The position numbers and the translations under genes were made by a program. 40,389 nt of DNA from the NCBI GenBank assembly GCA_031265535.1, contig JAISCO010000322.1, positions 1 to 40,389 of the forward strand, in the 5' to 3' direction. Origin of the DNA: Spirochaetaceae bacterium. GTDB taxonomy: Bacteria; Spirochaetota; Spirochaetia; Treponematales; Breznakiellaceae. Below, in pieces: positions 11,601 through 33,901 of this stretch (the stretch's first letter is position 1; the number at the start of each line of letters is the position of its first letter). Below the pieces are notes generated by a model that was given only the letters and a program-made list of their open reading frames with translations, was not told the DNA's origin and searched no databases.

Positions 11601-11669
11601 CTTCTGCGCCGCCTTTTCCGGCGGGTCAAAGGGCAAGTGTGTCAAATCAAAGAAATCATAGTCAGTCAT
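8604..11669 (-). CDS. shared N-terminal module (~316 aa) + double Zn-ribbon + TPR-like hairpin + helical region + Fn3/Ig-like beta domains
   Basis: 1021 aa. N-terminus MTDYDFFDLTHLPFDPPEKAAQK. 'KCPHCQ...CSNCG...CGKCQ...CPECG' gives four CxxC pairs. Fn3-like stretches include 'VRLTWNAPKNSAGVTIRR...YAYKLCA' and 'YNVSWDINRRG...ITVLAYSG'. Confidence 0.85.
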   Translation of the reverse strand: MTDYDFFDLTHLPFDPPEKAAQKILDAIEKAKKELDGSFNNGPRGDKEEVLFSEQKKCLASVLDANKEPLFDELERLANAHTDREIKKFRKTAAALKAGGTSRITKGTVRTYKQITKLSESHIEEVFSALGLEMLEFNYYKIIESLLPTNWKNHIKDLENLRNYKKNVADTSQVTDLYAFLAYMADEPENVYEYRNKSTTELKSLCEKYAADFGDPKANEWRHLCGSLATYGRFNVFDSEKKRSAYGILLKYKSTDLAELIDSLKGFDKSHLLNPRYAEKYVKQIFDIFGDNTIAVAVYNNELKLLDDPYIPVTPMFHVKCPHCQAPIEFTDAAEAQNINKCSNCGKPLYKRCGKCQKMALVSLDRCPECGFVFASAAMFAKYFAAAEQALRKSDFELARSSLYQAQAADPGEKSRTDELAARISAEEKRYEKPVNDLRKLLADKMFQKASETLAVITGSFPGLNVSVFEAQINTALSQARTRFANVGKLSSSGKADECVAILRDCVDFEPAVSFLQSTPPESCKNLSVGMDSLAGAANIGWTPSPEQGVSCRLVRKQGKEIPVSKMDGEILLDNTKDTTYRDKTILPGQWYSYAVFAVRYGVFSSAAGKTDVLLADVTDARAEQVNMTVRLTWNAPKNSAGVTIRRTQGGKETLLSSEAHGSFEDTNVQYGLAYAYKLCANYANLPHSRGVDIVITPMLKIESFAIAVKKLKENTYNVSWDINRRGIDLRILVGGKQVRELKSDAGSCDIELPANNFHTITVLAYSGGNWLPSKNSQEVNTYSPCLIDKASSSLHEDAIAGLREAAYTIELHLKIGVIPPNVTGFYYSVRTSASQNHWPTAQDIGTAQDIHRIGLAAYRENGEILYRETARAEASYYVSLFTIYNFGGKEIVSDPKPCRFDRPLRVDVFWKLSKSLLGDIKLSIEAAGNRPFSQAPRFVLCACADDQHLISHNDPKAVQVLAIQGGELETPRKTCNSSYDVRTDLSLRQLKNTKFFLFETAPVPGEEFILRWAKGFTGKI

Positions 11670-11713: not shown

Positions 11714-12829
11714 TCACTCCACGCCCCATATCCTGACGGTGTTATCCAATGACCCGGAGGCAATCCTGCGCCCATCGGGACTCCACGACACGGAAGCTAC
11801 AAAGCTGGTATGCCCCGTGAGCGCAAACAGTTCGCTCCCGCTCTCCGCGTCCCAGATCTTTATGGTTCTATCAGATGACCTGGAAGCTATCCTGCGCCCA
11901 TCGGGGCTCCATGCCACGGAAGAGTTTCCCTTATTGAGGGTTAGCAGTTCACGCCCATTCTCTGCGTCCCATATTTTGAAGGGGTCATTCTTATTATAAT
12001 ATGAACCGGAAGCTATTCTGCGCCCATCGGGGCTCCACGCCACGTAATCTACATAGCTGTTATGCCCCGTGAGTGTGCGCAGTTCACGCCAATTCTCCGC
12101 GTCCCATATCCTGACGGTGTTATCTCCTGAGCCGGAAGCTATCCTGCGCCCATCGGGGCTCCACCCCACGGAATATACCTTGTCGGTATGCCCCTTGAGG
12201 GTTAGCAGTTCACGCCAATTCTCCGCGTCCCATATTTTGATGGTGTTGTCCTCTGACCCGGAAGCTATCCTGCGCCCATCGGGACTCCACGCCACGGAAT
12301 CTACCTCCTTGAGTGTGCGCAGTTCACGCCCGCTTTCCGCATCCCATATCTTGACGGTCTTATCACGTGACTTGGAAGCTATCCTGCGCCCATCGGGGCT
12401 CCATGTCATGTAATATACAAAGCTGTGATGCCCCTTGAGTGTGCGTAGTTTACGCCCGCTCTCCGCGTCCCATATCTTGATGGGTTCTTTATACCTTGAC
12501 CCGGCGGAGGCAATCCTGCGCCTATCGGGAGTCCACGCCACGGAATCTACCTCCTTGGGGGTGCGCAGTTCACGCCCGCTCTCCGCGTCCCATATTTTGA
12601 TAGTCATATATGACTCGGAAGCTATCCTGCGCCCATCGGGGCTCCACACCACGTGATATACAAATCTGTTATGCCCCGTGAGTGTGCGCAGTTCACGCCC
12701 GCTCTCTGCATCCCATATCCTGACGGTGTTATCTCCTGAGCCGGAAGCTATCCTGCGCCCATCGGGGCTCCATGACATGGAACATACCTTGTCGGTATGC
12801 CCCTTGAGTACGCACAGTTCACGCCACCC
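11714..12829 (-). repeat. intragenic tandem array of ~126-bp WD40-coding repeats (9 units)
   Basis: The string 'gcgcccatcggggctccacgccacgga...cagttcacgcc(c/a)...tccgcgtcccatat' recurs with ~126-bp period. The same units recur in 14237-14866. Confidence 0.9.
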
Positions 12830-14140
12830 CTCCTTCCGCTTCCTGCTGGTTTCATCCTCCTCCCGCTTCCGCCTCTCTTTTGCGGAAATACGCGCCGCCA
12901 GTTCATCGGTTTTGCTCTTTTTGCCCGGATCGGCAGCCTGCGCATCGGACAAATAAAGGCGTGCCAATTCAAAATGCCCTTCGAGAAATGCCCGTTCTGC
13001 GGTAGCGAAGTATTTTTCAAACGCTACGGCGCTCTCCTCCCGCTTGGCTTCATCCTCCTCCCGCTTCCGTCTGGCATCCTCCTCCCGCTTCTGTCTGGGT
13101 TCCTCCTCGAAGATCGGCTCGGGTATACGAAGCTCCGGTTCCGGCATTGTGTGGCTCGGCTCCTTTTTTGCCGGGATATAAAACTCGTCTTTAAACCCTG
13201 CTTCCTTGTTATAGATAGCGAGCGAGACCTCATAATCCCCAAAGACGGCCGCGATTTCTTTTATACATCCCTCGGCAAATTTGGGTTCCAACAAATGGTG
13301 CATGGAAAAGGATTTCATGGTAGAGAACAACTCCGTCAGAGACGGAGTTTTATATTTCAGGTATGCTTCATAGGCTTGGCGGTGATCTTCCGAGTCGAAT
13401 ACATAAAGCTTGCCGTACGTAGCCAGTGAAGAGCAGAGATGTCCAAATTTATCGGTTCGAGCAGAGTACTTTACGGCAAAACCATCAAACAGGCTTTTCA
13501 GTGCGGATCTTGATTTACTTCTATACACCGCCGCGTTTTCCGGTTCGCCGGCCATGTATGCGGCAAGGTCATACAAATTTTTCACCTGCTTAAGGGCAGC
13601 CTCATTCACGTTTGATTTTTGGTCTTTAAAATTCTGAAAAGCCTCGAGAGGTTTCGCATACGCTTTATCCGCGTTGGTTGGAAACCTGGGATATTTTTTA
13701 ATCAGATCATCGGTGGAGCTTACTGTAAATCCGGCGGCACGGAAAACATCTTCCACATTTTTCTTTGATAATCCCCTCTCTTTTTGATGACCACGAATAG
13801 CCCTATCGGTAATTACATGGGAACCTGACTGTTTGAGCCGCGAAACGAACGCCCTTAGTTTCTCGATTTCTTTTTTTACTTTATCTTTTGCCAGTTCATC
13901 ATAAGCGGGAGTGAGTTTATCATCATTACTAATGATAGAGTCTTTTGATCCCTTTTTTATGATTTTGTCCAAAAAAGACTGTTTTCCCGTGATTTTATCG
14001 TACTCCCATTGCGGCATATCATTGGTAGGATGACCAATCTCTTTTTTTGCCTTTTCGATAGCGCCGGTAACCTTCTGCGCCGCCTTTTCCGGCGGGTCAA
14101 AAGGCAGGCGTGTCAAATCAAAGAAATCATAGTCAGTCAT
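11714..14140 (-). CDS. shared N-terminal module + charged linker + TPR-like hairpin + 9 WD40 repeats
   Basis: 808 aa. N-terminus MTDYDFFDLTRLPFDPPEKAAQK. Nine units of the form GHxxxVxxVxWSPDGRRIASGSxDxT(V/I)(R/K)IWDAE(S/N)GRELRTL(K/T). Confidence 0.9.
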   Translation of the reverse strand: MTDYDFFDLTRLPFDPPEKAAQKVTGAIEKAKKEIGHPTNDMPQWEYDKITGKQSFLDKIIKKGSKDSIISNDDKLTPAYDELAKDKVKKEIEKLRAFVSRLKQSGSHVITDRAIRGHQKERGLSKKNVEDVFRAAGFTVSSTDDLIKKYPRFPTNADKAYAKPLEAFQNFKDQKSNVNEAALKQVKNLYDLAAYMAGEPENAAVYRSKSRSALKSLFDGFAVKYSARTDKFGHLCSSLATYGKLYVFDSEDHRQAYEAYLKYKTPSLTELFSTMKSFSMHHLLEPKFAEGCIKEIAAVFGDYEVSLAIYNKEAGFKDEFYIPAKKEPSHTMPEPELRIPEPIFEEEPRQKREEDARRKREEDEAKREESAVAFEKYFATAERAFLEGHFELARLYLSDAQAADPGKKSKTDELAARISAKERRKREEDETSRKRKEGWRELCVLKGHTDKVCSMSWSPDGRRIASGSGDNTVRIWDAESGRELRTLTGHNRFVYHVVWSPDGRRIASESYMTIKIWDAESGRELRTPKEVDSVAWTPDRRRIASAGSRYKEPIKIWDAESGRKLRTLKGHHSFVYYMTWSPDGRRIASKSRDKTVKIWDAESGRELRTLKEVDSVAWSPDGRRIASGSEDNTIKIWDAENWRELLTLKGHTDKVYSVGWSPDGRRIASGSGDNTVRIWDAENWRELRTLTGHNSYVDYVAWSPDGRRIASGSYYNKNDPFKIWDAENGRELLTLNKGNSSVAWSPDGRRIASRSSDRTIKIWDAESGSELFALTGHTSFVASVSWSPDGRRIASGSLDNTVRIWGVE

Positions 14141-14236: not shown

Positions 14237-14866
14237 TTACTCCGCGCCCCATATCCTGACGGTTTTATCATTTGACCCGGAAGCTATCCTGCGCCCATCG
14301 GGGCTCCACGCCACGGACAGTACATCGTAGGTATGCCCCTTGAGCGTGTGCAGTTCACGCCCGCTCTCCGCGTCCCATATTTTGATGGTTTTATCCGATG
14401 ACCCGGAAGCTATCCTGCACCCGTCGGGGCTCCACGCCACGGAGTATATGTAGTCGGAATCCTTGAGCGTGTGTAGTTCACGCCCACTCTCCACATCCCA
14501 TATCCTGACGGTCATATCATTTGACCCGGAAGCTATCCTGCGCCCATCGGGGCTCCACGCCACGGACAGTACATCGTAGGTATGCCCCTTGAGCGTGTGC
14601 AGTTCACGCCCGCTCTCCGCGTCCCATATCCTGACGGTTTCATCCCGTGACCCGGAAGCTATCCTGTGCCCGTCGGGACTCCACGCCACGGATTCTACAA
14701 TGTGATGCCCCGTGAGCGTGTGCAGTTCACGCCCGTTCTCCGCATCCCATATCCTGACGGTGTCATCCCCTGCCCCTGAGGCAATCTTGAGCCCATCGGG
14801 GCTCCACGCCACGGAATATACATAGAAGAAATGCCCCTTGAGCGCACGCAGTTCACGCCAAAGCTC
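14237..14866 (-). repeat. intragenic tandem array of ~126-bp WD40-coding repeats (5 units)
   Basis: Same repeat family as 11714-12829. Units 3 and 5 are almost identical at the DNA level. Confidence 0.9.
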
Positions 14867-15844
14867 TTCCTTTTTCGCCGGGATATAAAGCTCACCTTGT
14901 AATCCCGCTTCCTTGTTATAGATATTTACCGATACCATATAATAGCAGCCAAAGATGGCCGATATTTTATTTATAAACGCTTCGGCCAATCCGGGGTCTA
15001 ACAAATCCTGCTTGTTGGAGGAAAAGGACTTCATCTGAGCGAATAACTGTGTCAGCAACGGATTTTTATATTTCAGGTATGCTTCATAGGCTTGGCGGTG
15101 ATCTTCTGTGTCGAATATATATGTCTTGCCGTAAGTAGCCAGAGAAGAGCATAGATGCCCTGCCGGATCATTGTCATGCTGCCCGGATAACTTACCGGCG
15201 AATCCGTCAAATAGGGCTTTTAGTTCGGGAGTTGTTTTCTTTTTATACTCCGCGGTTTTTTCCGGCTCACCGGCCATACACGCGGCAAAGGCATATAAAT
15301 CTTCCGCCGGCGTAAAGTCAGTCCATTTTTTATTCTCAGGTTTTCGCAAAGCCTCAAGTTCCTTATACGCTATATCCGCGTTTTTTGGAAACTTTGGGTA
15401 GTGCTTGTTGAACAGTTCATCTCTGGGGATTTCTGTAAATCCGGCATTACGAAAAACCTCTTTCACATGGCCTTCGGACAGCAATGTCCTTTTGCTATGG
15501 CGGCGAATCGTACCATCAGTAAACTTAGGGGAAGGCAGCAGCAAAACGACCTCCCTTAGTTTCTCGATTTCTTTTTTTACTTTATCTTCCGCCAGCTTGC
15601 TATAAGCGGGAGTGAGTTTATCATCATTACTAATGATAGAGTCTTTTGATCCCTTTTTTATAATGGTGTCCAAAAAAGACTGTTTTCCCGTGATTTCATC
15701 GCGTTCCAATTGCTGCGTGGCAGAGGAAAGAGCAGCAACAAGTTCTTTTTTTGACTTTTCGACAGCGCCGGTAACCTTCTGCGCCGCCTTTTCCGGCGGG
15801 TCAAAGGGCAAGTGTGTCAAATCAAAGAAATCATAGTCAGTCAT
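14237..15844 (-). CDS. shared N-terminal module + 5 WD40 repeats
   Basis: 535 aa. The N-terminal ~322 aa are almost identical to those of the next gene upstream (15874-17973). They are followed by five near-identical WD40 units. Confidence 0.9.
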   Translation of the reverse strand: MTDYDFFDLTHLPFDPPEKAAQKVTGAVEKSKKELVAALSSATQQLERDEITGKQSFLDTIIKKGSKDSIISNDDKLTPAYSKLAEDKVKKEIEKLREVVLLLPSPKFTDGTIRRHSKRTLLSEGHVKEVFRNAGFTEIPRDELFNKHYPKFPKNADIAYKELEALRKPENKKWTDFTPAEDLYAFAACMAGEPEKTAEYKKKTTPELKALFDGFAGKLSGQHDNDPAGHLCSSLATYGKTYIFDTEDHRQAYEAYLKYKNPLLTQLFAQMKSFSSNKQDLLDPGLAEAFINKISAIFGCYYMVSVNIYNKEAGLQGELYIPAKKEELWRELRALKGHFFYVYSVAWSPDGLKIASGAGDDTVRIWDAENGRELHTLTGHHIVESVAWSPDGHRIASGSRDETVRIWDAESGRELHTLKGHTYDVLSVAWSPDGRRIASGSNDMTVRIWDVESGRELHTLKDSDYIYSVAWSPDGCRIASGSSDKTIKIWDAESGRELHTLKGHTYDVLSVAWSPDGRRIASGSNDKTVRIWGAE

Positions 15845-15873: not shown

Positions 15874-17973
15874 TTATGTGTCGTCTGCGGTTAGATACAT
15901 CCATCTACTAACAAAGTAAACAAAGATACCAATGCTCCAACCAATCAAGGCATCAATGATAGCACCGCCGATACCACCGAAGAAGAAACCCCTGGATCCG
16001 CGAAGAGAGCCGATAAAGCTGCTTATAACCATACAAGCGCAGAACCCTAATTCGCCACCAAAGAGTTCCATTGCGAAATTATTAATGATGTAGTAGATGA
16101 GAACAGAAATAGCGCCGATGATGGTACCGATAATTGCGCAGACGACAACACCATTGCTGCCTTGAAAGATGGCACTACCGATGGCATCGACAATAATACT
16201 GGCGATGGCAATGACAAGTATTATTTTCTTTTTTCGTTCTCTTTTGAATTCCTCACTCAGCTTCCACCAGACTTCCTCCTCCTGTTCCCGCCTCTCTTCT
16301 TCTTCCCGCTTCCGTCTGGGTTCCTCCTCTTGTTTCCGTCTCTCTTCCGCAGAAATACGCGCCGCCAGTTCATCGGTTTTGCTCTTTTCACCCGGATCGG
16401 CGTCCAGTGCTTCGAACAAATAATTGCGTGCCAATTCAAAATACTCTTCGAGAAGTGCCTGTTCTGCGGCAGCAAAGTATTTTGCAAACGCTGCGGCGCT
16501 CTCTTCCTGCTTCCGTCTAGCGTCCTCTTCCTGCTTACGTATAGCGTCCTCTTCCTGCTTACGTCTAGCGTCCTCTTCCTGTTTCCGCCTCTCTTCTGCG
16601 GAAATACGCGCCGCCAGTTCATCGATCTTGATCTTTTTGCCCGGATCGGCAGCCTGCGCATCGGACAAAGAACGGCGCGCCAATTCAAAATCGCTCTTGC
16701 TAAGGGCCTGTTCCGCGGCAGCGAAGTATTTTTCAAACGTTGCGGCGCTCTCCTCTCGCTTTCTGTCATCCTCCCGCTTCCGTCTCTCTTCCGCAGAAAT
16801 ACGCGCTGCCAGTTCATCAGTCTTGATCTTTTTGCCCGGATCGGCAGCCTGCGCCTGGGACAAATAAATGCGTGCCAATTCAAAATCGCTCTTGCGAAGG
16901 GCCTGTTCCGCGGCAGCGAAGTATTTTTCAAACGCGGCGGTACTCTCCTCCTGCTTCCGTCTCGTCTCTTCTTCCCGCTTCCGCCTCTCCTCCTCCTCAA
17001 ATCTCGCCGGGATATAAAGCTCACCTTGTAATCCCGCTTCCTTGTTATAGATATTTACCGATACCATATAATCGCAGCCAAAGATGGCCGAGATTTTATT
17101 TATATACACTTCGGCCAATTCGCGGTCTAACAAATCCTGCTTGCTGGAGGAATAGGATTTCATCTGAGCGAATAACTCTGTCAGCGACGGATTTTTATAT
17201 TTCAGGTGTGCTTCATAGCCCCGGCGGTGATCTTCTGTGTCGAATACATAGGTCTTGCCGTAAGTAGCCAGAGAAGAGCAGAGATGCCCTGCCGGATCCT
17301 TATCATGCGGCCCGGATAACTTACCGGCGAATCCGTCAAACAGGCTTTTTAGTGCGGATGTTGATTTACCGCGATACTCCGCGGCTTTTTCCGGCTCACC
17401 GGCCATGCACGCGGCAAAGGCATATAAATCTTCCGCCGCCGTAAAGTCAGTCCATTTTTTATTTTCAGGATTCCGTAACGCCTCAAGTTCCTTATACGCT
17501 ATATCCGCGTTTTTTGGAAACTTTGGGTAGTGCTTGTTGAACAGTTCATCTCTGGGGATTTCTGTAAATCCGGCATTGCGAAAAACCTCTTTTACATGGC
17601 CTTCGGACAGCATTGTCCTTTTGCTATGGCGGCGAATCGTACCATCAGTAAACTTATGGGAAGGCAGCAGCAAAACGACCGCCCTTAGTTTCTCGATTTC
17701 TTTTTTTACTTTATCTTCCGCCAGCTTGCTATAAGCGGGAGTGAGTTTATCATCATTACCAATGATAGAGTCTTTTGATCCCTTTTTTATGATGGTATCC
17801 AAAAAAGACTGTTTTCCCGTGATTTCATCATGCTCCAATTGCTGCGTGGCAGAGGAAAGAGCAGCAACAAGTTCTTTTTTTGACTTTTCGATAGCGCCGG
17901 TAACCTTCTGCGCCGCCTGTTCCGGCGGGTCAAAAGGCAAGTGTGTCAAATCAAAGAAATCGTAGTCAGTCAT
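15874..17973 (-). CDS. shared N-terminal module + 3 TPR-like hairpin cassettes in E/R/K-rich linkers + C-terminal glycine-zipper multi-TM domain
   Basis: 699 aa. Three copies of 'FEKYFAAAEQAL.KSDFELAR..L..AQAADPGKK.K.DELAARISAEERRK.EE'. The last ~119 aa are hydrophobic and Gly-rich (IIGTIIGAISVLIYY...FFFGGIGGAIIDALIGWSIGIFVYF). Confidence 0.9.
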   Translation of the reverse strand: MTDYDFFDLTHLPFDPPEQAAQKVTGAIEKSKKELVAALSSATQQLEHDEITGKQSFLDTIIKKGSKDSIIGNDDKLTPAYSKLAEDKVKKEIEKLRAVVLLLPSHKFTDGTIRRHSKRTMLSEGHVKEVFRNAGFTEIPRDELFNKHYPKFPKNADIAYKELEALRNPENKKWTDFTAAEDLYAFAACMAGEPEKAAEYRGKSTSALKSLFDGFAGKLSGPHDKDPAGHLCSSLATYGKTYVFDTEDHRRGYEAHLKYKNPSLTELFAQMKSYSSSKQDLLDRELAEVYINKISAIFGCDYMVSVNIYNKEAGLQGELYIPARFEEEERRKREEETRRKQEESTAAFEKYFAAAEQALRKSDFELARIYLSQAQAADPGKKIKTDELAARISAEERRKREDDRKREESAATFEKYFAAAEQALSKSDFELARRSLSDAQAADPGKKIKIDELAARISAEERRKQEEDARRKQEEDAIRKQEEDARRKQEESAAAFAKYFAAAEQALLEEYFELARNYLFEALDADPGEKSKTDELAARISAEERRKQEEEPRRKREEEERREQEEEVWWKLSEEFKRERKKKIILVIAIASIIVDAIGSAIFQGSNGVVVCAIIGTIIGAISVLIYYIINNFAMELFGGELGFCACMVISSFIGSLRGSRGFFFGGIGGAIIDALIGWSIGIFVYFVSRWMYLTADDT
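16349..16945 (-). repeat. three ~150-bp copies of a TPR-like-hairpin coding cassette
   Basis: Copies lie at about 16349-16500, 16598-16749 and 16792-16945. Single copies of the same cassette lie at about 10390-10550 and 12880-13033 in two other genes. Confidence 0.85.
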
Positions 17974-17988
17974 GATTTATCATCCTTT

Positions 17989-20172
17989 TCAATCATCCCA
18001 GGTTTCCGTGTCCGCGGCGCTTCGATCAAGGCCGCTTTGCGCGGCAGCGCCTAAACTTTGCGCAATCGTTCCAAAGGCGCTCGTCAGTTCCGACTGCGAA
18101 ACAAGCAGCGCATTGGCGTCTTTGGATGATATATCCTGTAAAAACTTCTTGTCGGCTTTTCCAAAGCCGATGGCCGCCGTTTCGATCTCCGCGTGGTTGC
18201 ACTGTTTTGCCGCCGCGATTGCCGCTTCCTGGCAGCGCCAAACGCCGTCTGCCAGGATAACGGCAAAACGCCGCCCGTCCTCGTCCGCAAGCATGTTCCT
18301 GATGTCGGTAAACGGGTGTGCGCTGTTGCAATACCCGGTCTGCCCGCTGGTAATGGACTGAATGGCCCGTATGCAGGCATCCTCATTGTCGGTGAGTCCC
18401 GTTATCTCGGCTGTCCTGTCGGATACGGCAAGTATGCCGACCCGGGTGAATGAAAAATCCATATTGCGAATAAAATCGCACATCGCGTTCTGGGCGGCTC
18501 TTAGCGGGTCTCCATCCATACTGCCCGAAACATCAACAGCCATGACGACATTCAACGGTTCGGGTTTAAGGAACTCCGCCGGGTCAATGGGCAGCGCGTA
18601 TTTCGACATATCCTCCGGCACCGGTTCTTTGCGAATGGGCAAGTCGCCGCAACCGCTTTCCTGCCGCGCCTGCACCTGGATAATCCCGTTGTTGTCGTAA
18701 CTGTACTGGACCTTGATTATAGTTTTCCCTTTTTGTCCTTTTACGTGCTGAATGCCGGAGACAAGGTATTTGTACGGGATCTGGTTGTCGAGCGGGTTTT
18801 CCTTGTCGCCCTGTAAAACATAAACCTCCATCTCGTTAGCGCCGCGAGCGGAAGTGTAAAACGCAAATGCTTTGGCAACGCGAACCGGGCGCGGGTGGTT
18901 GGCGGGGATTATAATATCGTTAATATACCCGGCGCCGTCCGTACTGACGGCTATAATGCCCATCGCGTGAGCGGTCGTCTCCCTTAGTTTCAGAAGGCCG
19001 ACGCTAGAGAGCTTTTGCGAAGGTTTAACGCTCACCTGAGAACTTAAGCCGCTGTGGGCCGTAACTTTTTTCCCGTCGCTCATCACCTGTATAGCGAGCG
19101 CGGCATAAGGTTCGTTTTCTTTGGTGGACTGTATCGCGGCGCCCAAAGCGACAGCTTCATCGGGATTTACATGGGTTATGGGCTTTTTACCGAACATATC
19201 CAGAATGTACCGTGAAACCTGCGGCATACGGGTAGAACCCCCGACCAGCAGCACATCCGTTACGTCACGAATGTTTAATCCGGCGTCGGAGAGGACGGTG
19301 TTGCAAAGCGATACCGTCCTGTCAAGCAGGTCCCTTGTGTTTTCTTCAAACTCGCCGCGATTGACCATAACGCTCGCGGAACCAAAATCAGGGATGGAAG
19401 CGCTGACCTTTACGGACTGCATGGCGCTTAATTGCTTTTTTACGCCTTCAGCCATGCCGCGGAACATGGCTTTTATACCGGCGCCGGAGTGTGTATCAAT
19501 ACCTGTTTCCGCCGCAAATTTATCCATCAGCAGTTGTTCTATGCGGTCGTCCCAATCACGGCCGCCAAGTAAATGATTGCCCCGCGTTGTGATAGTCGAT
19601 AAATCGCCGTTAGGCCCCATCCGGGTTAAGGTTACGTCAAAGGTTCCGCCGCCTAGGTCGTAAACAAGAATATTCGCGTTCTCGCGCCAGTTGTTCAAGC
19701 CGTATGCCATCGCCGCCGCGTTAGGCTCGTCAATAATTTTCCTCACCTTTATACCCGCGGCATTTGCGGCCCGGACGGTCGCTTCGCGCTCGGCCGAGTA
19801 GAAGTAAGCGGGAACAGTAATTACCGCGTCCTTTATGGTATCGCCCAGTTCGGCTTCCGCGTCTTCCTTTAAGCGCCTAAGCAGCAGAGCGGATAAGTCC
19901 TCGGCGGTATAGGATTTGTCATCTATAAAGCAGTACGCCCCGGACTTTCCCATACCGCGTTTGAAGGTGGCCGCGCAGCCGGATTGTCCCGCGTTAAAGG
20001 CGCTCTCCGCCTCGGAACCGAAAATGGCCCGTCCGTTTACAAACTGGATAACGGACGGGGTTATGTTTTTGCCTTCGCGGTTGGGGATGATTTTCGGCAG
20101 CTTTGTTTGAGGGTCAATGTACGCCACCGCCGAAAAGGTCGTCCCCAGATCAATACCTACTGAAACAGCCAA
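17989..20172 (-). CDS. Hsp70 (NBD + SBD-beta) fused to a C-terminal vWA domain
   Basis: 727 aa. TTG start 8 nt after GGAGG. Hsp70 motifs GIDLGTTFS, IDEPNAAAMAYG, YDLGGGTFDVTL, LLVGGSTRMPQV. C-terminal MIDAS-type 'VVMAVDVSGSMDG' (DVSGS at 18520-18534). Confidence 0.85.
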   Translation of the reverse strand: MAVSVGIDLGTTFSAVAYIDPQTKLPKIIPNREGKNITPSVIQFVNGRAIFGSEAESAFNAGQSGCAATFKRGMGKSGAYCFIDDKSYTAEDLSALLLRRLKEDAEAELGDTIKDAVITVPAYFYSAEREATVRAANAAGIKVRKIIDEPNAAAMAYGLNNWRENANILVYDLGGGTFDVTLTRMGPNGDLSTITTRGNHLLGGRDWDDRIEQLLMDKFAAETGIDTHSGAGIKAMFRGMAEGVKKQLSAMQSVKVSASIPDFGSASVMVNRGEFEENTRDLLDRTVSLCNTVLSDAGLNIRDVTDVLLVGGSTRMPQVSRYILDMFGKKPITHVNPDEAVALGAAIQSTKENEPYAALAIQVMSDGKKVTAHSGLSSQVSVKPSQKLSSVGLLKLRETTAHAMGIIAVSTDGAGYINDIIIPANHPRPVRVAKAFAFYTSARGANEMEVYVLQGDKENPLDNQIPYKYLVSGIQHVKGQKGKTIIKVQYSYDNNGIIQVQARQESGCGDLPIRKEPVPEDMSKYALPIDPAEFLKPEPLNVVMAVDVSGSMDGDPLRAAQNAMCDFIRNMDFSFTRVGILAVSDRTAEITGLTDNEDACIRAIQSITSGQTGYCNSAHPFTDIRNMLADEDGRRFAVILADGVWRCQEAAIAAAKQCNHAEIETAAIGFGKADKKFLQDISSKDANALLVSQSELTSAFGTIAQSLGAAAQSGLDRSAADTETWDD

Positions 20173-20189: not shown

Positions 20190-21869
20190 CTATTTGTGAT
20201 CAAAACCGCTCTCAATTTGTCCGCGGGGGTTTATCGAAGCAAGAAATTTTTTTGCTTCGTCCATTTCTTCCTCTGTTTTGGGATTTCCTCTTTCTATGAC
20301 GGCGCTGACCGATTCGCCGGTTAAAGTATTGGTTGCCGAGACTTCAAGCCCGATTTCGCTGGCACGGAAGACTACCTCAATTGGCGAACTATTTGGGGTG
20401 TTGGGGGGCAGCTTTAAACTGAGCTCGCCGATCTTATTGACCATAAGAGCCGGGTCGGTGGGCTGATCATTGCCGTTCATATCTTCGGAGGGAGTAACGT
20501 GCGTGTTCACCCGGTCCCTCGAAGCATTTTGGAACACGACAAGGTTAACCACGCGCTGATTATCGCAGCGCGTGTAATAGGTAGAGGTCGCCTCTGCCGG
20601 TATCTCATCATTGACAAAGAGCAGATTGTCAATCACATACAAGTCATTTTTATCCAGAATACCCGGCCCCAGGGAGCGGTTGAGTTTGTCTTTGACAGTG
20701 ATATGCCGCGGTACGTTTTGCAGCAGCTTTTCTTCTTCTTTTTTGGTAATGGGAGTCGGTTCTTCTTTAATACGCTCTTGGATCTGCTCGTTATATTTTA
20801 TAGCGGCAGTTAAAGCCGCGCCTTTTGCGACAGCCAAGTGGGGCTGTTCAACACGCACCTTGCCGGGGAACAATCCCTCAACAGCGGCCTTAACCATAGG
20901 CATCAATGTAGACCCCCCAACGAGCAGTACAAGATCAACATCGTCCGCCTGAAGTTTTGCCTTCCCCAGCAATTGACGCACAAAGTCCATAGTCCGCTCG
21001 ACCAGGTCCCTGGTCCGCTCTTCGAACTTCTCGCGGCTTACCTCCAGGCGAGTGCCTTCACCGCCATAGCTGATTATAAAACTCTTGTTCGACATCGTAG
21101 AGAGATTTTTTTTAACAGTTTCCACCTGTGAACGGATCTTCTGGCGAAGTTCGCCTTCCATATCGTCCTGGGAAACTCCGGTTTGAGCGGTGTAAAGTTC
21201 GCATATATAGTCATACAGACTGGCGTCCCAGTTAATGCCGCCCAGGCGGTCGTTGCCGCCGGTTTCAATGACGTCAATAGTCGCCTTGTCGTTGTCGTCA
21301 ACACTAAAATCAAACAGTGTAATATCAAAGGTACCGCCGCCCAGGTCATAAACCATGATTTTACGGTTCTCACTGAACTCGTGGCAGCAATAGTTAAGCG
21401 CGGCGGCGGTCGGCTCATTGACAATCTTCAGGACTTCCAAGCCCGCAATGTCGCCCGCCCTTTTTGTCTCGGTGCGTTCATTATCACCAAAATACGCGGG
21501 GCATGTGATAACGACGTTTTTCACCTGATGGCCCTGCGCTTCGGCATATACTTTCATACGCTTCAGAATGAGAGCAGAGATTTCTGCGGGGTCATACTTT
21601 TTCCCGTTAAATTCACGAATCTGAGCGTCTTTCTTGCCGATTTCTCTTTTGACAAACTGAACGACTCTGTCAGGTTCAAGTTCCGCCTGACTCTTAGCCG
21701 CTTCTCCGATCACCGGATCGCCTTCACTTGGGAAGTAAACGGCGGACGCAAGCAAATCGCCGCCGTCATCATAGTTTTGAATAACCTCCGGCATTCCGTT
21801 TTCATTCAGAGTCGTGATGACCGAGTAAGTAGTACCCAGGTCAATACCATAAACTTTTTCCTTTTCCAT
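20190..21869 (-). CDS. Hsp70-family ATPase with SBD-beta but little or no helical lid
   Basis: 559 aa. Motifs GIDLGTTYS, VNEPTAAALNY, YDLGGGTFDITL, LLVGGSTLMPMV. SBD-beta-like '...IEVVFRASEIGLEVSATN'. SD AAGGAG. Confidence 0.85.
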   Translation of the reverse strand: MEKEKVYGIDLGTTYSVITTLNENGMPEVIQNYDDGGDLLASAVYFPSEGDPVIGEAAKSQAELEPDRVVQFVKREIGKKDAQIREFNGKKYDPAEISALILKRMKVYAEAQGHQVKNVVITCPAYFGDNERTETKRAGDIAGLEVLKIVNEPTAAALNYCCHEFSENRKIMVYDLGGGTFDITLFDFSVDDNDKATIDVIETGGNDRLGGINWDASLYDYICELYTAQTGVSQDDMEGELRQKIRSQVETVKKNLSTMSNKSFIISYGGEGTRLEVSREKFEERTRDLVERTMDFVRQLLGKAKLQADDVDLVLLVGGSTLMPMVKAAVEGLFPGKVRVEQPHLAVAKGAALTAAIKYNEQIQERIKEEPTPITKKEEEKLLQNVPRHITVKDKLNRSLGPGILDKNDLYVIDNLLFVNDEIPAEATSTYYTRCDNQRVVNLVVFQNASRDRVNTHVTPSEDMNGNDQPTDPALMVNKIGELSLKLPPNTPNSSPIEVVFRASEIGLEVSATNTLTGESVSAVIERGNPKTEEEMDEAKKFLASINPRGQIESGFDHK

Positions 21870-21887: not shown

Positions 21888-24437
21888 TTATTTTTTTACC
21901 GGATTACCGGCGTTTGACTCATCAATTGGCGCTGTACAGCCCGGCAGACTCGCCGGGATATAAGGCTCATCTTTTAACCCCGCTTCCTTGTTATAGATAG
22001 CGAGCGATACTTCATAGTCCTCAAAGACGGTCGAGATTTCTTTTATACACGCTTCGGCAAATTTTGGCTCCAAGAAATACTGACTGGGAACAGACCTTAT
22101 GGTAGAAAAAAACTGCGTCAGGGACGGACTTGTATATTTCAGGTATGCTTCATAGTCCCGGCGGTGATCTTCCGAGTCGAATACATAGATCTTGCCGTGC
22201 ACAGCAAGAGAAGAGCAGAGCCACCCAAAGTTATCGAATTGAATACAGTATGCCTTGGCGAAACCATCAAACAGGCTTTTCAGTTCGGGTGTTGATTTAC
22301 CTCTATACTCCGCCGCTTTCTCCGGCTCGCCGGCCATGTATGCGGCAAAGTCATACAAATCTTTTACCTGCCTAAGGGCAGCCTCATTCGTGTTTGGCCT
22401 TGGGTTTGGAGATTTTCGCAAAGCCTCAAGTTCCGCATACATTTTATACACGTTGGTTGGAAACCGAGGATATTTTTTAAACAGATCAGCGGTGGAAATT
22501 ATTGTAAATCCGGCGGCGCGGAAAAGATCCTCCAAATGTTCCCTGGATAGCATCGTCTTTTTTTGATGACCGCGAATCGCCCCCTCTGTAATTACATGGA
22601 AACCCGATTGTTTGAGCAGCGAAGCGACCGCCCTTAATTTTTCAATTTCTTTTTTTACTTTATCTTTTGCCAGATCATCATAGGCAGGAGTGAGCTTGCC
22701 TTCATTATTAAAGATGCTTTTGGATATGGAGTCCAAAAAAGACGTTTTCCCCGCGGTTTCATCGCGCTCAAACTGCTGTACGGATAAGAAAATTGTCGTG
22801 TCAAGTTCTTTTTTTGCCTTGTTGATAGCGTCGATAAGCTTTTGCGCCGCCTTTTCGGGCGGGTCAAAAGGCAAGTGTGTCAAATCAAAGAAGTCGTAGT
22901 CAAGGCGATTTTGAACGGGCTCATTTTTGGTGTTTTCGCTTGTTATGACGGTGTTGACCTTTTCGCCGGTTTGAACATTGGCTGCCGAGACTTCCAGCCC
23001 GGTTTCGCCGGCACAGAAAAGCACCCGGATTGGCGAAGCCTTATGGGTGCCGGGTGGCAGCTTCAAGCTGAGCACTCCGATTTTCTTGACCATCAGAGCC
23101 GGATCAGTGGGCTGCGTATTACCATTTATGTCTTCGGAAGGAGTAACATGCTTGTCCCTGTCCTTTGAAGTATTTTCAAACAAGACAAGTTTAATTTCGC
23201 TCTGATTATCAATGCGTGTGTAACAGGTAAAAGCCGCCTTAGCCGGCAGTTCATCACCTACAAAGAGTAGATTGTCAATAACATACCGGCCATCACCATC
23301 TATGATACCCGGCCCCATGGAACGGTTGAGTTTGTCTTTGACCTTACCTGCTTTCTTGTTTTCTTTATATCCTACAAAGGCAGCCAAAGCCGCGCCTTTT
23401 GCGACAGCCAGGTCGGGCTGCTCAATACGAACCTTGCCGGGGAACATACCCTCAACAGCGGCCTTGACCATAGGCATCCTCGTAGAACCCCCAACGAGCA
23501 GTACAAGATCGATATCGTCCGCCTGAAGTTTTGCCGTCCCCAGAAGCTGACGCACAAAGTCCATAGTCCGCTCAACCAGGTCCCTGGTCAGCTCTTCAAA
23601 CTTCTCGCGTCTTGGCTCCAGGCGAGTACCTTCACCAGCATAGCTGATTATGAAACTCTTGCTCGACATATGGGAGAGATTTTTTTTAACATTCTCCACC
23701 TGTGAACGGATCTTCTGGCGAAGTTCGCCGTCCATCTCGCTCTGGCGAACCCCGGTTTGAGCGGTGTAAAGTTCGCATATATAGTCATACAGGCGCTCGT
23801 CCCAGTCAACGCCGCCCAACCGGGCGCTGCCGCCGGTTTCAATGACGTCAATATTTGTTTTGCCGCCGGCATCAACACTAAAATCAAACAGTGTAATATC
23901 AAAGGTACAGCCGCCCAGGTCATAAACCATGATTTTGCGGTTCTCAGTGAACTCGCTGCAGCAATAGTTAAGCGCGGCGGCAGTCGGCTCATTGACAATG
24001 TTTAGGACATTCATGCCCGCAATAATGCCCGCCTGTTCTGTCGCGGCGCGTTCCCCTCTGCCAAAATACGCGGGGCAGGTGATAACGACATTTTTCACCT
24101 GATGTCCCTGAGTTTCGGCGTACTCTTTCATTCGCTTCAGAATGAGGGCAGAGATTTCTATGGGGCCATACTTGACTCCGTTAAATTCACGAATCTGCGC
24201 GTCATCCTTGCCGATTTCTCTTTTGACAAACTGAAAGACCCTGTCGGGGTCAAGTTCCGCGTGACTCTTCGCCGCTTCACCGACCACCGGATCGCCTTCA
24301 CTTGGGAAGTAAACGGCGGACGCAAGCAAATCGCTGCTGTCATCATAGTTTTGAATTACCTCCGGCATTCCGTTTTCATTCAGAGTCGCGATGACCGAGT
24401 AGGTAGTACCCAGGTCAATACCATAAACTTTTACCAT
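21888..24437 (-). CDS. Hsp70-family ATPase fused C-terminally to the shared ~335-aa module
   Basis: 849 aa. Residues 1-~505 are paralogous to 20190-21869. From residue 513 (nt 22901 downward) the sequence 'DYDFFDLTHLPFDPPEKAAQK...' repeats the module found at the N-termini of four downstream genes. The phosphate-2 motif reads DLGGCTFD (Cys codon at 23907-23909). Confidence 0.85.
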   Translation of the reverse strand: MVKVYGIDLGTTYSVIATLNENGMPEVIQNYDDSSDLLASAVYFPSEGDPVVGEAAKSHAELDPDRVFQFVKREIGKDDAQIREFNGVKYGPIEISALILKRMKEYAETQGHQVKNVVITCPAYFGRGERAATEQAGIIAGMNVLNIVNEPTAAALNYCCSEFTENRKIMVYDLGGCTFDITLFDFSVDAGGKTNIDVIETGGSARLGGVDWDERLYDYICELYTAQTGVRQSEMDGELRQKIRSQVENVKKNLSHMSSKSFIISYAGEGTRLEPRREKFEELTRDLVERTMDFVRQLLGTAKLQADDIDLVLLVGGSTRMPMVKAAVEGMFPGKVRIEQPDLAVAKGAALAAFVGYKENKKAGKVKDKLNRSMGPGIIDGDGRYVIDNLLFVGDELPAKAAFTCYTRIDNQSEIKLVLFENTSKDRDKHVTPSEDINGNTQPTDPALMVKKIGVLSLKLPPGTHKASPIRVLFCAGETGLEVSAANVQTGEKVNTVITSENTKNEPVQNRLDYDFFDLTHLPFDPPEKAAQKLIDAINKAKKELDTTIFLSVQQFERDETAGKTSFLDSISKSIFNNEGKLTPAYDDLAKDKVKKEIEKLRAVASLLKQSGFHVITEGAIRGHQKKTMLSREHLEDLFRAAGFTIISTADLFKKYPRFPTNVYKMYAELEALRKSPNPRPNTNEAALRQVKDLYDFAAYMAGEPEKAAEYRGKSTPELKSLFDGFAKAYCIQFDNFGWLCSSLAVHGKIYVFDSEDHRRDYEAYLKYTSPSLTQFFSTIRSVPSQYFLEPKFAEACIKEISTVFEDYEVSLAIYNKEAGLKDEPYIPASLPGCTAPIDESNAGNPVKK

Positions 24438-24455: not shown

Positions 24456-25235
24456 TTATTTTTCCGCCGGATTACCGGCGCTGGTACCCTCGAAACGATA
24501 AATCTCTACGCGTTCTTTTACCAGCGAACGGTTTTCAATATAGAAGCCCGCGCTGCGGCTTGATGCGACCGTATCATGCAAATCGGGATTCTCCACCGGG
24601 ATTAGCTTAACGATCTGGCTATGCCTTGTATTGCGCTTGTCCCCCGGTTTGCTTTTCAGTTTATGAACACCGTTAGCCTCAAGGATCTGAAGAATTCCAA
24701 AAAATATACCGCTAATCCACTTTTTCCCCTTGTTGTCCGCAATCTTCTCAATAAAGGGCTCGTTGTCGCTGTACAGTCCGGCAAGCTCGCGGAGTATTTC
24801 GTCGAATACAAGCCCCCTGTCCCTCTCGTGGTACTTATCCAACTCTCCCTGCATGAACCTCAAGCGTTTGTCGAATTCATTTTGGTAGAGCTTATGCACC
24901 TCCCGGATTTCGCCCGTTGTCTTTACAGAGGCTTCGGCGATGATTTTAAGCTCCCGTTCAAGACGCTCTATGCCTGTCTGCACGGTCTGTAATCCATCCG
25001 ATAAGTTTTCTTGATTTGCGTCCGGGGATTTCTCTTCCGCGCTTTTCACGGCGATTTCCGGCGCGTCAGAGCATTGCCCGCATGCAGCCGCCCCCGTGGC
25101 GCTTTCCGGCACGTACGGGGATTTCTCCTCCGCGCTTTCCACGGCGATTTCCGGTGCGTCAGGGCATTGCCCGCATGCAGCCGCCTCCGTGGCGGTTTCC
25201 TCAAGTTCATTTTCCGTAATTTTTGATTCTTCCAT
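24456..25235 (-). CDS. GrpE-like nucleotide-exchange factor with a repeated Cys-containing acidic N-terminus
   Basis: A coiled-coil segment is followed by 'GIFFGILQILEANGVHKLKSKPGDKRNTRHSQIV...VASSRSAGFYIENRSLVKERVEIY', which follows the GrpE C-terminal pattern (GV..i...G..f....H.av......V.....GY...R.lr.a.V.V). Start chosen at MEESK (GGAGG 8 nt upstream). ATG at 25250 or the track start at 25307 are alternatives; 25307 would overlap the upstream gene. Confidence 0.65.
   Translation of the reverse strand: MEESKITENELEETATEAAACGQCPDAPEIAVESAEEKSPYVPESATGAAACGQCSDAPEIAVKSAEEKSPDANQENLSDGLQTVQTGIERLERELKIIAEASVKTTGEIREVHKLYQNEFDKRLRFMQGELDKYHERDRGLVFDEILRELAGLYSDNEPFIEKIADNKGKKWISGIFFGILQILEANGVHKLKSKPGDKRNTRHSQIVKLIPVENPDLHDTVASSRSAGFYIENRSLVKERVEIYRFEGTSAGNPAEK
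25024..25194 (-). repeat. 2 x 93-bp tandem repeat inside the GrpE-like gene
   Basis: Units start at 25024 and 25117. They encode AT(E/G)AAACGQC(P/S)DAPEIAV(E/K)SAEEKSP twice. Confidence 0.85.
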
Positions 25236-25264
25236 AACAAATGCCTCCATAAAAATATTTCCCA

Positions 25265-28354: not shown

Positions 28355-28783
28355 TTATTGCATTTGCACTCCATTTTCATTACACAAGGCTTGTAATTCC
28401 GCGAGCCATTCACCCATAAGCGTTTGTCCTTTCTCGATACGTTCATTAAAGTCTTCCGCTTTGCTTGCGTCTTGATTGTCAAGCATATTTTCAAGAAAGA
28501 CAAAAGCACTCATATTTGTTTTTACTGCTTCGATATATTTTTCATTTAATTTTCTGACTTCATCGGTTTTCAATCTAACAGAAAACTCACCAAGCCCTTC
28601 CGCAAGTTTCCGGTAATTGGGAATTATCACATCAGTTAGAGCCTTATACATATCTAAATCATTTGTATAATTCTCACCAGAAACACCACTGTAAGAAGCG
28701 ACAGCAGCGTTCTCATAATCAATAACAGCAGGCAGACAATCGTTAAGATATGTCAACAAATCAGAGTGCAAACTCAGTTTCAT
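28355..28783 (-). CDS. hypothetical helical protein
   Basis: 142 aa from MKLSLHSDLL. SD GGAGG before this ATG; the track's longer start lacks one. No motif recognised. Confidence 0.55.
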   Translation of the reverse strand: MKLSLHSDLLTYLNDCLPAVIDYENAAVASYSGVSGENYTNDLDMYKALTDVIIPNYRKLAEGLGEFSVRLKTDEVRKLNEKYIEAVKTNMSAFVFLENMLDNQDASKAEDFNERIEKGQTLMGEWLAELQALCNENGVQMQ

Positions 28784-28893
28784 AAAATCCTCCAAAAATA
28801 TATTCCAAAGCGGCGACACGGGTGCCGCCGTATCAGACCATTTCAGTTTTTTTGCGTTCGATCAAACTACGCAAATGCGTTAAACGAGCCGGG

Positions 28894-29310: not shown

Positions 29311-29601
29311 AAAAAATACCCCTTAAATTAAAATTTGCGTTTATAGTCCGCCGGCTTTTTTATATAAAGCGATAAAAAAATACCGCCGCTTTACCCACAT
29401 TCCTGACGTTTACCGTTGATAGGTTCCTGACGTTTTTTGTGCGCGATGAAGGAATCGCGTAGCAATTCCAGCGCACAAAAAATGTGGCGGAGAAAAAACA
29501 CACAAAGAATGTAGCCCGACTGCGTTTTTTCGTAACCCGTAGCGCCCGTAAGGCGTGGAGCAGGAACCATGCGTTATGTGCCGTTTGTCTGCTACCATAT
29601 T

Positions 29602-31930: not shown

Positions 31931-31933
31931 ATC

Positions 31934-33093: not shown

Positions 33094-33103
33094 TTTTATA
33101 GGG

Positions 33104-33860: not shown

Positions 33861-33901
33861 TCCAAAAACATCCAGCCATAATCCATGTGTTTGCCGGTAT
33901 C

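Follow-up and report, generated by a model that had tools for sequence, protein, structure and literature searches.

A shared module with two J-like, HPD-less elements in a spirochaete operon of Hsp70, GrpE-like and DO-GTPase genes

Introduction

The cycle of an Hsp70 requires a J-protein, which triggers ATP hydrolysis through the contact made by its HPD tripeptide, together with a nucleotide-exchange factor, and to our knowledge every known Hsp70 cycle uses a J-domain that carries HPD. Here, we analyse an operon that combines three Hsp70s and a GrpE-like factor with only HPD-less J-like domains, which constitutes a gap in standard annotation. The operon lies in a stretch of 40,389 nucleotides from a Spirochaetaceae bacterium (contig JAISCO010000322.1 of assembly GCA_031265535.1), the whole of which we refer to as the window, and the element in question is a common N-terminal module of approximately 312-323 residues on four consecutive proteins. 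An original prediction, made from the letters and open reading frames (ORFs) of the window, had proposed that the interval 17194-17433 within this module codes for a degenerate J-domain. Using structure prediction, structure searches and profile comparisons, we find support for two J-like elements in the module, both without HPD, and we argue that the module probably acts as a docking adaptor for the Hsp70s of the operon.

Results

The locus and the shared module

The operon runs on the minus strand from position 27964 to approximately 1036 and encodes, in this order, a TrwB/VirD4-like ATPase, a 461-amino-acid (aa) protein, a GrpE-like protein, three Hsp70s, the four module proteins, two DO-GTPases, an 842-aa protein, a further DO-GTPase, a 140-aa protein and an SH3 protein. 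The module genes are the minus-strand ORFs 15874-17973, 14237-15844, 11714-14140 and 8604-11669, and at the protein level copies 2, 3 and 4 of the module are 90, 66 and 43% identical to copy 1. Behind the module the C-termini differ: TPR-like units with a membrane tail in the first protein, WD40 propellers in the next two, and zinc ribbon, TPR-like and FN3-like parts in the last, which we refer to as the core protein. The module copies and the two J-like elements of copy 1 are located as follows.

17008-17973, minus strand: module copy 1, residues 1-322 of the 699-aa protein; C-terminal to it are three TPR-like units and a Gly-rich transmembrane tail
14879-15844, minus strand: module copy 2, residues 1-322 of the 535-aa WD40 protein; J-like element B at 15065-15304, loop QHDNDP
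13172-14140, minus strand: module copy 3, residues 1-323 of the 808-aa WD40 protein; J-like element B at 13349-13582, loop ARTDK
10734-11669, minus strand: module copy 4, residues 1-312 of the 1021-aa core protein; J-like element B at 10911-11147, loop GDPKAN
17719-17973, minus strand: J-like element A, approximately residues 1-85 of ORF 15874-17973 (MTDYDFFDLTHLPFDPPE...), without HPD, suggested by transitive hhalign
17194-17433, minus strand: J-like element B, residues 181-260 of ORF 15874-17973, suggested by AlphaFold2, Foldseek and hhalign

The interval 17194-17433 codes for residues 181-260 of the 699-aa ORF, and the peptide reads EDLYAFAACMAGEPEKAAEYRGKSTSALKSLFDGFAGKLSGPHDKDPAGHLCSSLATYGKTYVFDTEDHRRGYEAHLKYK. 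As the plus strand of this interval is riddled with stop codons, the minus-strand reading is the real one. On translation the peptide, its coordinates and the four loop readings of the original prediction (PHDKDP in copy 1 and those listed above for the other copies) prove exact. The AlphaFold2 (AF2) model of the whole module is all-alpha, with a predicted local distance difference test score (pLDDT) of 82.9 that falls to 43-55 over the first ~20 residues. Approximately 150 residues of the module (86-180 and 262-322) lie outside the J-like parts.

A predicted J-like fold in residues 181-260

An AF2 model of residues 172-275, built from a 30-sequence alignment, reaches a pLDDT of 87.9 and a predicted template-modelling score of 0.75. 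In this model, element B consists of helix I (183-190), an inserted helix (194-200), helix II (205-218), helix III (227-243) and helix IV (247-259), and the loop between helices II and III (219-226, SGPHDKDP) encloses the PHDKDP of the original prediction. When the model was searched with Foldseek against 350,542 PDB chains, J-domains took the top 13 hits and 23 of the 32 overall, including T. thermophilus DnaJ, Tid1, CbpA, E. coli DnaJ, Ydj1, CSP and the DnaK-J complex 5nro. The target-normalised template-modelling scores are 0.66-0.68 for the named J-domains and 0.74 for an unnamed radial-spoke chain, at root-mean-square deviations of 2.2-4 Å, and the likeness is read from hits and scores, not from residue-by-residue alignments. 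In the viral library BFVD, 11 of the top 20 matches to the same model are named DnaJ or J-domain. As each Foldseek E-value is weak by itself, the argument is carried by the dominance of one family.

Profile comparison with hhalign, against a profile of 22 J-domain sequences, gives a probability of 5% for the main-family element B, with only 'VFxSEDxRxxYE' matched to 'VLSDxxKRxxYD'. Merged with the sister clade described below, element B aligns with the J profile over 69 columns in full J register (probability 23.5%); the local score of 21.8 lies about 8 standard deviations above that of 40 column shuffles (8.8 ± 1.7, maximum 14.2), and the global score reaches 17.5, where shuffles give 2.5 ± 1.7. 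In the merged register DLY pairs with DYY, an insertion of ~10 residues follows helix I, helix II falls on helix II, the II-III loops are paired, and R..Y[DE] falls on R..YD. The element B profile searched against PDB sequences returned only spurious haemagglutinin and designed-protein matches.

The structural check that had been proposed for a model of residues ~170-265, run here on 172-275, thus finds a four-helix J-like fold with J-domains at the head of both the PDB and the BFVD matches. The J-domain layout that had been read by eye into residues 181-260 is borne out at the level of the fold by AF2 and Foldseek, with weak support from the sequence, and a J-like predicted fold is in this sense shown for element B.

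A second J-derived element at the N-terminus

A likeness of the extreme N-terminus (DYDFFDL...) to J helices I and II had been noted in the original prediction as well, and it appears to be real: residues 1-27 match helices I and II of the J profile with a probability of 37% and a score of 23.1 against a null of 9.0 ± 1.8. A further link runs through a sister clade of divergent core-protein relatives, made up of P0208, P0202 and P0197 (~990 aa) and eight proteins of 218-422 aa, mostly ~325 aa (P0225-P0232). The ~990-aa members are counterparts of the core protein, encoded after an Hsp70-vWA gene and before a DO-GTPase/GAP1-like gene, and the proteins of the clade start with 'NYYILLELDPS..IEKAI.EKQ..WS.E.NHP(T/S)KG....L.DIR.VL..P..R'. 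Module residues 1-105 match this N-terminus with a probability of 96% and an E-value of 4.4e-9 (residues 2-82 aligned), and the sister-clade N-terminal domain in turn matches the J profile over 67 columns (93.6%, E = 2e-7), with a score of 40.3 against a null of 10.6 ± 2.8. Searched against 177,635 PDB sequences, a 10-sequence sister-clade profile placed the J-domains of DNAJB2, DNAJB8 and HCG3 as its top three in full register, at E-values of 0.02-0.29. On sequence grounds, and through these transitive profile matches only, element A is shown to be J-domain-derived, and by the same profile evidence it is a better-supported J-derived unit than element B.

The sister clade has the same two-J-like layout as the main family. 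Its first unit, unlike that of the main family, is still recognisable as a J-domain (the hhalign probability of 93.6% given above) and carries a conserved W-S-x-E-x-N-H-P-(T/S)-K-G, whereas its second unit differs from that of the main family in that helix I is compact ('KKDLFDFLxLSPTSS') and the inserted helix is missing. Aligned with each other by hhalign, elements A and B give probabilities of 0.2-0.4% within each clade and of 41% only across clades; as the within-clade comparison is negative, an origin of the two elements by tandem duplication is not established.

Loss of HPD and of a basic helix II

The Pfam model for DnaJ (PF00226) has no match on the 36 larger ORFs of the window that were scanned; as positive controls, the J-domain of E. 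coli DnaJ and HscB score 9e-31 and 5e-6. An unfiltered hidden Markov model (HMM) of the 22 J-domains, run on the complete set of 496 six-frame segments no shorter than 40 aa, gives a best E-value of 2.3 (3.8e-32 for the real E. coli DnaJ), and a 7-sequence J-HMM matches none of the six-frame segments. On members of the module family, the 22-sequence J-HMM yields weak matches only, gathered at two places. The tripeptide HPD occurs in the window in only two plus-strand ORFs, each of which overlaps larger minus-strand ORFs. Pfam, the six-frame J-HMM and the HPD scan thus confirm that the window holds no canonical HPD J-domain. The original prediction had also considered that a canonical J-protein might be genetically linked outside the window; no PF00226 gene was found in four related loci from other assemblies (L003, L006, L007 and L008), and none is present in the window. 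Queries with the FN3 part and with the sister-clade N-terminus, which sought a relative with a true PF00226 N-terminus, found none.

Among 96 homologs, HPD is present in the II-III loop of neither element (0/96). Loop B contains His in 8 and Asp in 73 of the 96, and R-[NTSD]-D in 26; there are 95 variants among the 96 sequences, with S-x-R-N-D-x-L-G-K as the family consensus. The H-D-(K/N)-D loop, which had been taken for the equivalent of HPD, does not hold up in this comparison, as its His is rare and the PHD/QHD of the window falls into lineage-specific insert columns. H223-D224 was considered as a shifted HPD and rejected on the same grounds, because it lies in insert columns and is not conserved. 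The mean net charge of helix II is -0.2 in element B and +1.2 in element A, compared with +3.3 in the 22 J-domains. The positions conserved in at least 80% of 96 full-length modules are mostly hydrophobic or aromatic, namely F7, F14-D15, Y184, L208, F244, Y253, Y309-N310 and Y320.

The presumed Hsp70 partners and their links to the module

Directly upstream of the module genes lie those of the Hsp70s and of the GrpE-like protein.

24456-25307, minus strand: GrpE-like protein of 283 aa, putative nucleotide-exchange factor; Pfam GrpE 4.7e-5, 23.6 bits against a cut-off of 25.8
21888-24437, minus strand: full-length Hsp70 of 849 aa; Pfam HSP70 3e-88, profile positions 1-590; R167 replaced by N, linker KLNRS
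20190-21869, minus strand: Hsp70 of 559 aa whose Pfam match covers the nucleotide-binding domain (NBD) only; HSP70 2e-88, profile positions 1-377; R167 replaced by K, linker KLNRS
17989-20172, minus strand: fusion of an Hsp70 NBD with a vWA domain, 727 aa, directly upstream of module copy 1; HSP70 5e-102, VWA 1.5e-16; R167 replaced by K, linker TTAHA

The Hsp70s and the GrpE-like factor named in the original prediction are thus recovered, the three Hsp70s by Pfam and the GrpE-like factor with a match below the Pfam cut-off; the gene at the GrpE-like position of L007 matches Pfam GrpE at E <= 1e-5. The 849-aa and 559-aa Hsp70s are 83% identical across the NBD, which indicates a recent duplication. 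In DnaK, R167 pairs with the aspartate of HPD, and the J-domain uses the hydrophobic VLLLD linker to couple to hydrolysis. Aligned to E. coli DnaK from NC_000913.3, all three operon Hsp70s keep D8, K70, E171, D194, T199 and D201, while R167 and the VLLLD linker are replaced as listed. The alignments show matched degeneration on the two sides of the presumed interface: HPD and a basic helix II are lost in the module, R167 and the linker in the Hsp70s.

Gene order and gene fusions link the module to these partners. In the window and in L006, L007 and L008, the first module-family gene directly follows the Hsp70-vWA gene or is at most two small genes away from it (L008), and in L003 the module gene directly follows the second Hsp70 gene; on the upstream side, all contigs that extend far enough carry one more Hsp70 gene and a gene for a GrpE-like protein. 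The module-family gene of L007 codes for a stand-alone two-J-like protein of 327 aa, placed behind GrpE, Hsp70 and Hsp70-vWA on a contig with no DO-GTPase Pfam match. Three relatives join the module to an Hsp70 NBD in one protein: P0015 (Hsp70 at 9-367, module at 411-726), P0037 (module at 6-319, Hsp70 at 344-698) and P0042 (module, then NBD). The proposal that the module docks its carriers on dedicated Hsp70s is backed by this gene order and by the NBD fusions, from which we infer the binding itself.

The module family in other genomes

Among 1.84 billion representatives, searched exhaustively with a profile, 176 are relatives of the module at E <= 0.001, 155 of them below 1e-10; a word-indexed homolog search with the module returned only five outside relatives. 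Where a source is named, the closest relatives come from metagenome-assembled genomes of Spirochaetaceae, Treponema and Holophagales. The commonest carriers are ~1025-aa proteins like ORF 8604-11669, and others are stand-alone proteins of ~320 aa or have other C-termini; across the family the C-termini comprise FN3, WD40, MORN, biotinyl-lipoyl plus transmembrane, and transmembrane segments. Such varied C-termini on one module are typical adaptor behaviour. In the core protein of the window the module is followed by a double zinc ribbon, a TPR-like unit and a large FN3-like region, of which Pfam matched the zinc ribbon only. Among its orthologs, P0009 (4.8e-5), P0223 (1.1e-6) and P0044 (1.3e-7) match fn3 or Fn3_SaeA_3rd, and PF25833 is found in many.

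Downstream in L003 (GCA_964456695.1, 15555-21753) lie a transglutaminase-core protein and a pair of Imm33 and GH-E (HNH-type toxin) proteins, with no extra module paralogs. Judged by their domains, these genes are consistent with a variable conflict-type cargo behind a constant core.

Other genes of the operon and its surroundings

The remaining genes of the operon with a family assignment or an equivalent in related loci are the following.

26654-27964, minus strand: TrwB/VirD4-like ATPase of the FtsK-HerA class, at the head of the operon; Pfam TrwB_AAD_bind 2.8e-41, PADLOC mad8 1.3e-10
25265-26650, minus strand: conserved 461-aa protein without a Pfam or PADLOC match; a similar-length protein, also without a Pfam match, lies at the equivalent place in L003 and L008
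7506-8594, minus strand: DO-GTPase with an N-terminal zinc ribbon, directly after the core protein; DO-GTPase2 4.7e-6, 26.9 bits against a cut-off of 27
6388-7488, minus strand: second DO-GTPase; Pfam DO-GTPase2 30.1 bits against a cut-off of 27
3845-6373, minus strand: putative GAP1-like protein of 842 aa, without a Pfam match even at E <= 1, assigned by homology to relatives
2228-3814, minus strand: third DO-GTPase, 528 aa; Pfam DO-GTPase2 33 bits, DO-GTPase1 32.2 bits

The TrwB-like ATPase is also kept in L003 and L008 and matches HerA models of PADLOC as well. The DO-GTPases were assigned with the Pfam families PF19993/PF19975, and a DO-GTPase2-like gene (weak or faint matches) occupies the position equivalent to ORF 7506-8594 in L003, L006 and L008. 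The product of ORF 3845-6373 is 42% identical to an 843-aa protein at the equivalent place in L003 and matches by BLASTP (3e-30) a 951-aa protein of the related locus L004, which itself scores 26.4 bits with GAP1-M (cut-off 24). PADLOC gave no system-level match on the window; its single-gene matches are of HerA/mad8 type for the TrwB-like ATPase, with weak PDC-M61B matches for two of the Hsp70s.

Several features of the module genes stand beside these assignments. The first 34 codons (102 nt; 17872-17973, 15743-15844, 14039-14140 and 11568-11669) are 91-96% identical in DNA among the four genes, including the copy with 43% module protein identity, and ~30 nt upstream of each gene there is a common 'AAACCTGGGATAATTGA..GGA' motif. 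This 5' likeness suggests, from the DNA, gene conversion, a shared 5' cassette or a regulatory element. A TPR-like unit of ~55 aa, 'AAFEKYFAAAEQALRKSDFELARxYLSxAQAADPGKKxKTDELAARISAEERRKRE', is repeated on the minus strand at 16771-16938, 16576-16743, 16327-16494, 12860-13027 and 10371-10538; three of these repeats fall in ORF 15874-17973, and ORFs 11714-14140 and 8604-11669 hold one each. The unit is also found in the relatives P0002 and P0003, and its place is always behind the module or the zinc ribbon and ahead of the variable C-terminus. The C-terminus of ORF 15874-17973 (~15874-16150) is a Gly/Ile/Ala-rich, glycine-zipper-like membrane segment, 'IILVIAIASIIVDAIGSAIFQGSNGVVVCAIIGTIIGAISVLIYY...', and the relative P0005 has a similar Gly-rich tail after a biotinyl-lipoyl domain; by its composition this tail could be a pore-forming or membrane-anchoring effector. 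The WD40 parts (11714-13000 and 14237-14900) consist of highly regular repeats, 'SVAWSPDGRRIASGSxDxT(V/I)(R/K)IWDAESGRELRTLxGH', and near-identical repeats occur in a zinc-ribbon-WD40 protein beside a module gene on an unrelated metagenome contig (L001, 2422-3453). Judging from these repeats, the WD40 units appear to undergo concerted evolution or exchange.

Upstream of the operon (28355-40389), the window contains small TPR proteins (30809-31429, 33104-33886 and 37575-38096), a beta-helix protein (34492-35142), a TM2-domain protein (38888-39457) and several ORFs without a family match; TPR proteins also lie near the module genes of L001 and L007, with faint matches in L007. At the other end of the window, the plus-strand ORF 19-519 matches the C-terminal domain of LarA, lactate racemase (2.2e-14), and is probably, by this match, the end of a housekeeping stretch that lies downstream of the operon and is unrelated to it.

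Discussion

What does the module do for the Hsp70s of this operon? We consider it probable that it is a pseudo-J docking adaptor, built on two HPD-less J-derived elements, that tethers its carriers to the NBDs of the operon Hsp70s. The module would dock on the NBDs of these non-canonical Hsp70s, and docking would tether the core protein, the two WD40 proteins and the membrane protein to them. The GrpE-like factor would cycle the Hsp70s and so set their nucleotide state, and the module may recruit rather than classically stimulate ATP hydrolysis. Of the co-chaperone, pseudo-J and client roles that the original prediction had left side by side, a pseudo-J regulator or adaptor fits best, and classical ATPase stimulation is unlikely. 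The whole assembly would sit inside a conflict system controlled by the DO-GTPases and GAP1, as a spirochaete-type version of the GAP1-N2 Hsp70/GrpE theme. We infer a conflict or defence role of the operon only from the comparative argument of Kaur, Burroughs, Iyer and Aravind (2020, eLife; PMC7159879). It is also conceivable, although we hold this more elaborate view tentatively, that the tandem HPD-less adaptors co-evolved with Hsp70s lacking R167 and the linker into a nucleotide-gated scaffold for sensors and effectors in GTPase-controlled immunity or conflict. In that case the J-Hsp70 contact would have ceased to set off ATP hydrolysis in a chaperone, and would serve to assemble or release interchangeable FN3, WD40, MORN and membrane proteins.

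A number of observations weigh against the adaptor reading. The Foldseek E-values for element B are all at least 0.79, so that no single hit is significant, and its hhalign probability is only 5-24%; the case for element B accordingly rests on its fold and on concordance and not on a significant profile match. Even at E <= 10, Pfam DnaJ has no match on the module, its sub-segments or any of the ~25 homologs that were scanned. The J profile behind the hhalign comparisons consists of 22 sequences entered by hand, of which only two, the J-domains of DnaJ and HscB, were validated with Pfam; the E. coli DnaJ entry is also identical to NC_000913.3. Foldseek of the whole-module model against PDB gave nothing below E = 2 and no J-domain among the 50 matches listed; as the excised subdomain did retrieve J-domains, we take this miss for a sensitivity problem of a long all-helical query. 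On the side of the Hsp70s, the linker alignment beyond the NBD is uncertain, the P0015, P0037 and P0042 fusions are metagenomic gene calls, and a housekeeping DnaJ encoded elsewhere in the genome could serve the operon Hsp70s.

Could the module still be a working co-chaperone? A highly divergent J-domain might trigger ATP hydrolysis via a re-wired contact, for instance one in which the Lys or Asn in place of R167 pairs with the frequent loop Asp or with the R-N-D motif. The fold and the operon position (GrpE-like, Hsp70, Hsp70, J-like) match those of dnaJ, loop B retains Asp in 73/96 and R-[NTSD]-D in 26/96 homologs, the sister clade has a near-invariant N-H-P-(T/S)-K-G just after the HPD position, and the Hsp70s keep all catalytic residues. 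However, both elements are without HPD and without a basic helix II, the hydrophobic VLLLD linker is missing from the Hsp70s, and the loop is highly variable with 95 variants in 96 sequences, and we regard a working J-domain as rather unlikely. Alternatively, the J-like folds might be relics without Hsp70 contact, and the module a homotypic or heterotypic assembly domain, comparable to the effector-associated domains known from other conflict systems. Such a domain would unite the core protein with the four paralogs, or it would connect these proteins with the DO-GTPase/GAP1 pair or the TrwB-like ATPase. This would suit the presence of one module on four paralogs with variable C-termini, the ~150 residues that are not J-like, the mostly hydrophobic or aromatic nature of the most conserved positions (F7, F14-D15, Y184, Y253, Y309-N310, Y320) and the DO-GTPase gene directly after the core module protein in most loci. 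Yet the known fusions join the module to an Hsp70 NBD and not to a GTPase or GAP1, the stand-alone two-J-like protein of L007 follows GrpE, Hsp70 and Hsp70-vWA genes on a contig without a DO-GTPase Pfam match, and the J-derived ancestry argues for an Hsp70 partner; we think a pure assembly domain unlikely.

The NBD fusions make a client role less likely as well as a pure assembly role. As an obligate client or degron, the module would be caught at its N-terminus (DYDFFDLTxLPFDPPE), either by the full-length Hsp70 through its substrate-binding domain or by the vWA domain, and its carriers would be kept inactive until triggered. The first ~20 residues do have a pLDDT of 43-55 and yet form the most conserved motif (F7, F14 and D15 in at least 80%), and one of the Hsp70s has a full substrate-binding domain and another a peptide-binding vWA. 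DnaK-type substrate-binding domains, however, prefer hydrophobic-plus-basic peptides, unlike this acidic motif, the same N-terminal residues align to J-domain helix I, and the fusions involve the NBD only, so that we give the client reading little credence. Finally, the likeness might be accidental, with residues 181-260 forming a generic helical bundle unrelated to J-domains. The Foldseek E-values, the hhalign probabilities of at most 24%, the missing Pfam match and the ease with which small helical domains converge speak for this reading; against it, J-domains dominate the matches from two independent structure libraries, the sequence alignment follows the same full-length register as the structure at ~8 standard deviations above shuffles, a second, independently supported J-derived element is found in the same module, and the operon context is one of Hsp70 and GrpE. 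Chance resemblance thus seems to us highly improbable.

If the module indeed docks on the Hsp70s, as the adaptor reading has it, the J-Hsp70 interface has been rebuilt for recruitment and not for catalysis, and the module offers a testable handle on an uncharacterised Hsp70 branch of the DO-GTPase conflict systems. The conserved residues F7, F14-D15, Y184, F244, R250 and Y253 are better targets for mutagenesis than the non-conserved H-D loop. In addition, a family of 176 representatives that is currently without a Pfam annotation for the module gains one.

Comparison with known systems

The class of system to which the operon belongs, and a J-type fusion in the slot of the FNIII protein, are already published. 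The article of Kaur et al (2020; PMC7159879) describes, in the part that deals with this theme, GAP1-N2 DO-GTPase systems that include Hsp70 and GrpE and whose FNIII protein typically carries a fused DnaJ or TPR part, and places them mainly in actinobacteria and firmicutes. The window resembles this description in its DO-GTPases, FN3-type protein, Hsp70, NBD-only Hsp70 and GrpE-like protein, and may do so in its putative GAP1-like protein. In both, a J-type or TPR element is N-terminal on the FN3 protein, a slot that the 1021-aa protein fills here, and some components have transmembrane or SH3 domains. Measured against the same part of the article, the window differs in several respects: its N-terminal element is a ~320-aa HPD-less module with two J-like elements that Pfam DnaJ misses, this module is copied onto three more proteins (two WD40, one transmembrane), the operon starts with a TrwB-like ATPase and a ~460-aa protein that are not mentioned there, a vWA domain is part of one Hsp70, the relatives come from Spirochaetaceae, Treponema and Holophagales and not mainly from actinobacteria and firmicutes, and GAP1-N2 is not detected by Pfam in the window. 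The supplement text of that article has no DnaJ, HSP70 or GrpE entries, and the CoCoNuT paper mentions Hsp70 NBD/SBD homologs but not a J-domain.

In the literature searched, DO-GTPase systems are not described beyond Kaur et al, and other mentions are single and incidental. Within this literature, the tandem HPD-less J-like module that is invisible to Pfam appears to be undescribed; the same appears to hold for its spread onto WD40 and membrane paralogs, for its fusions to Hsp70 NBDs and for the parallel disappearance of R167 and the linker from the presumed Hsp70 partners.

Compared with a canonical J-domain (PF00226; E. coli DnaJ, CbpA, DjlA, HscB), element B is alike in its predicted fold and in the placement of the II-III loop, and its C-terminal 'V-F-x-S-E-x-x-R-x-x-Y-[DE]' echoes the 'V-L-S-D-x-x-K-R-x-x-Y-D' of J-domains. 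It differs in having no HPD, no basic helix II and no Pfam match, and in an extra helix of 10-12 residues after helix I. The position of the module gene, after grpE-like and hsp70 genes, echoes that of dnaJ in grpE-dnaK-dnaJ operons, whereas the module, unlike DnaJ, has neither a Gly/Phe region nor a DnaJ-type zinc-finger/CTD client-binding domain.

J folds without a functional HPD are known from Pam16/Tim16, the partner of Pam18/Tim14, and from the mouse 'pseudo DnaJ' 2cug, and are thought to anchor or regulate Hsp70 and not to stimulate it; PDB entry 2cug is the third-best Foldseek match of element B. The module resembles the Pam16/Tim16 type in that the J fold is kept, as far as it can be predicted, and HPD is lost. 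In contrast to Pam16, which heterodimerises with a true J-protein, it is found without a canonical J-domain in the window and in the four related loci, and it consists of two tandem J-like units that are fused to sensor- or effector-type domains.

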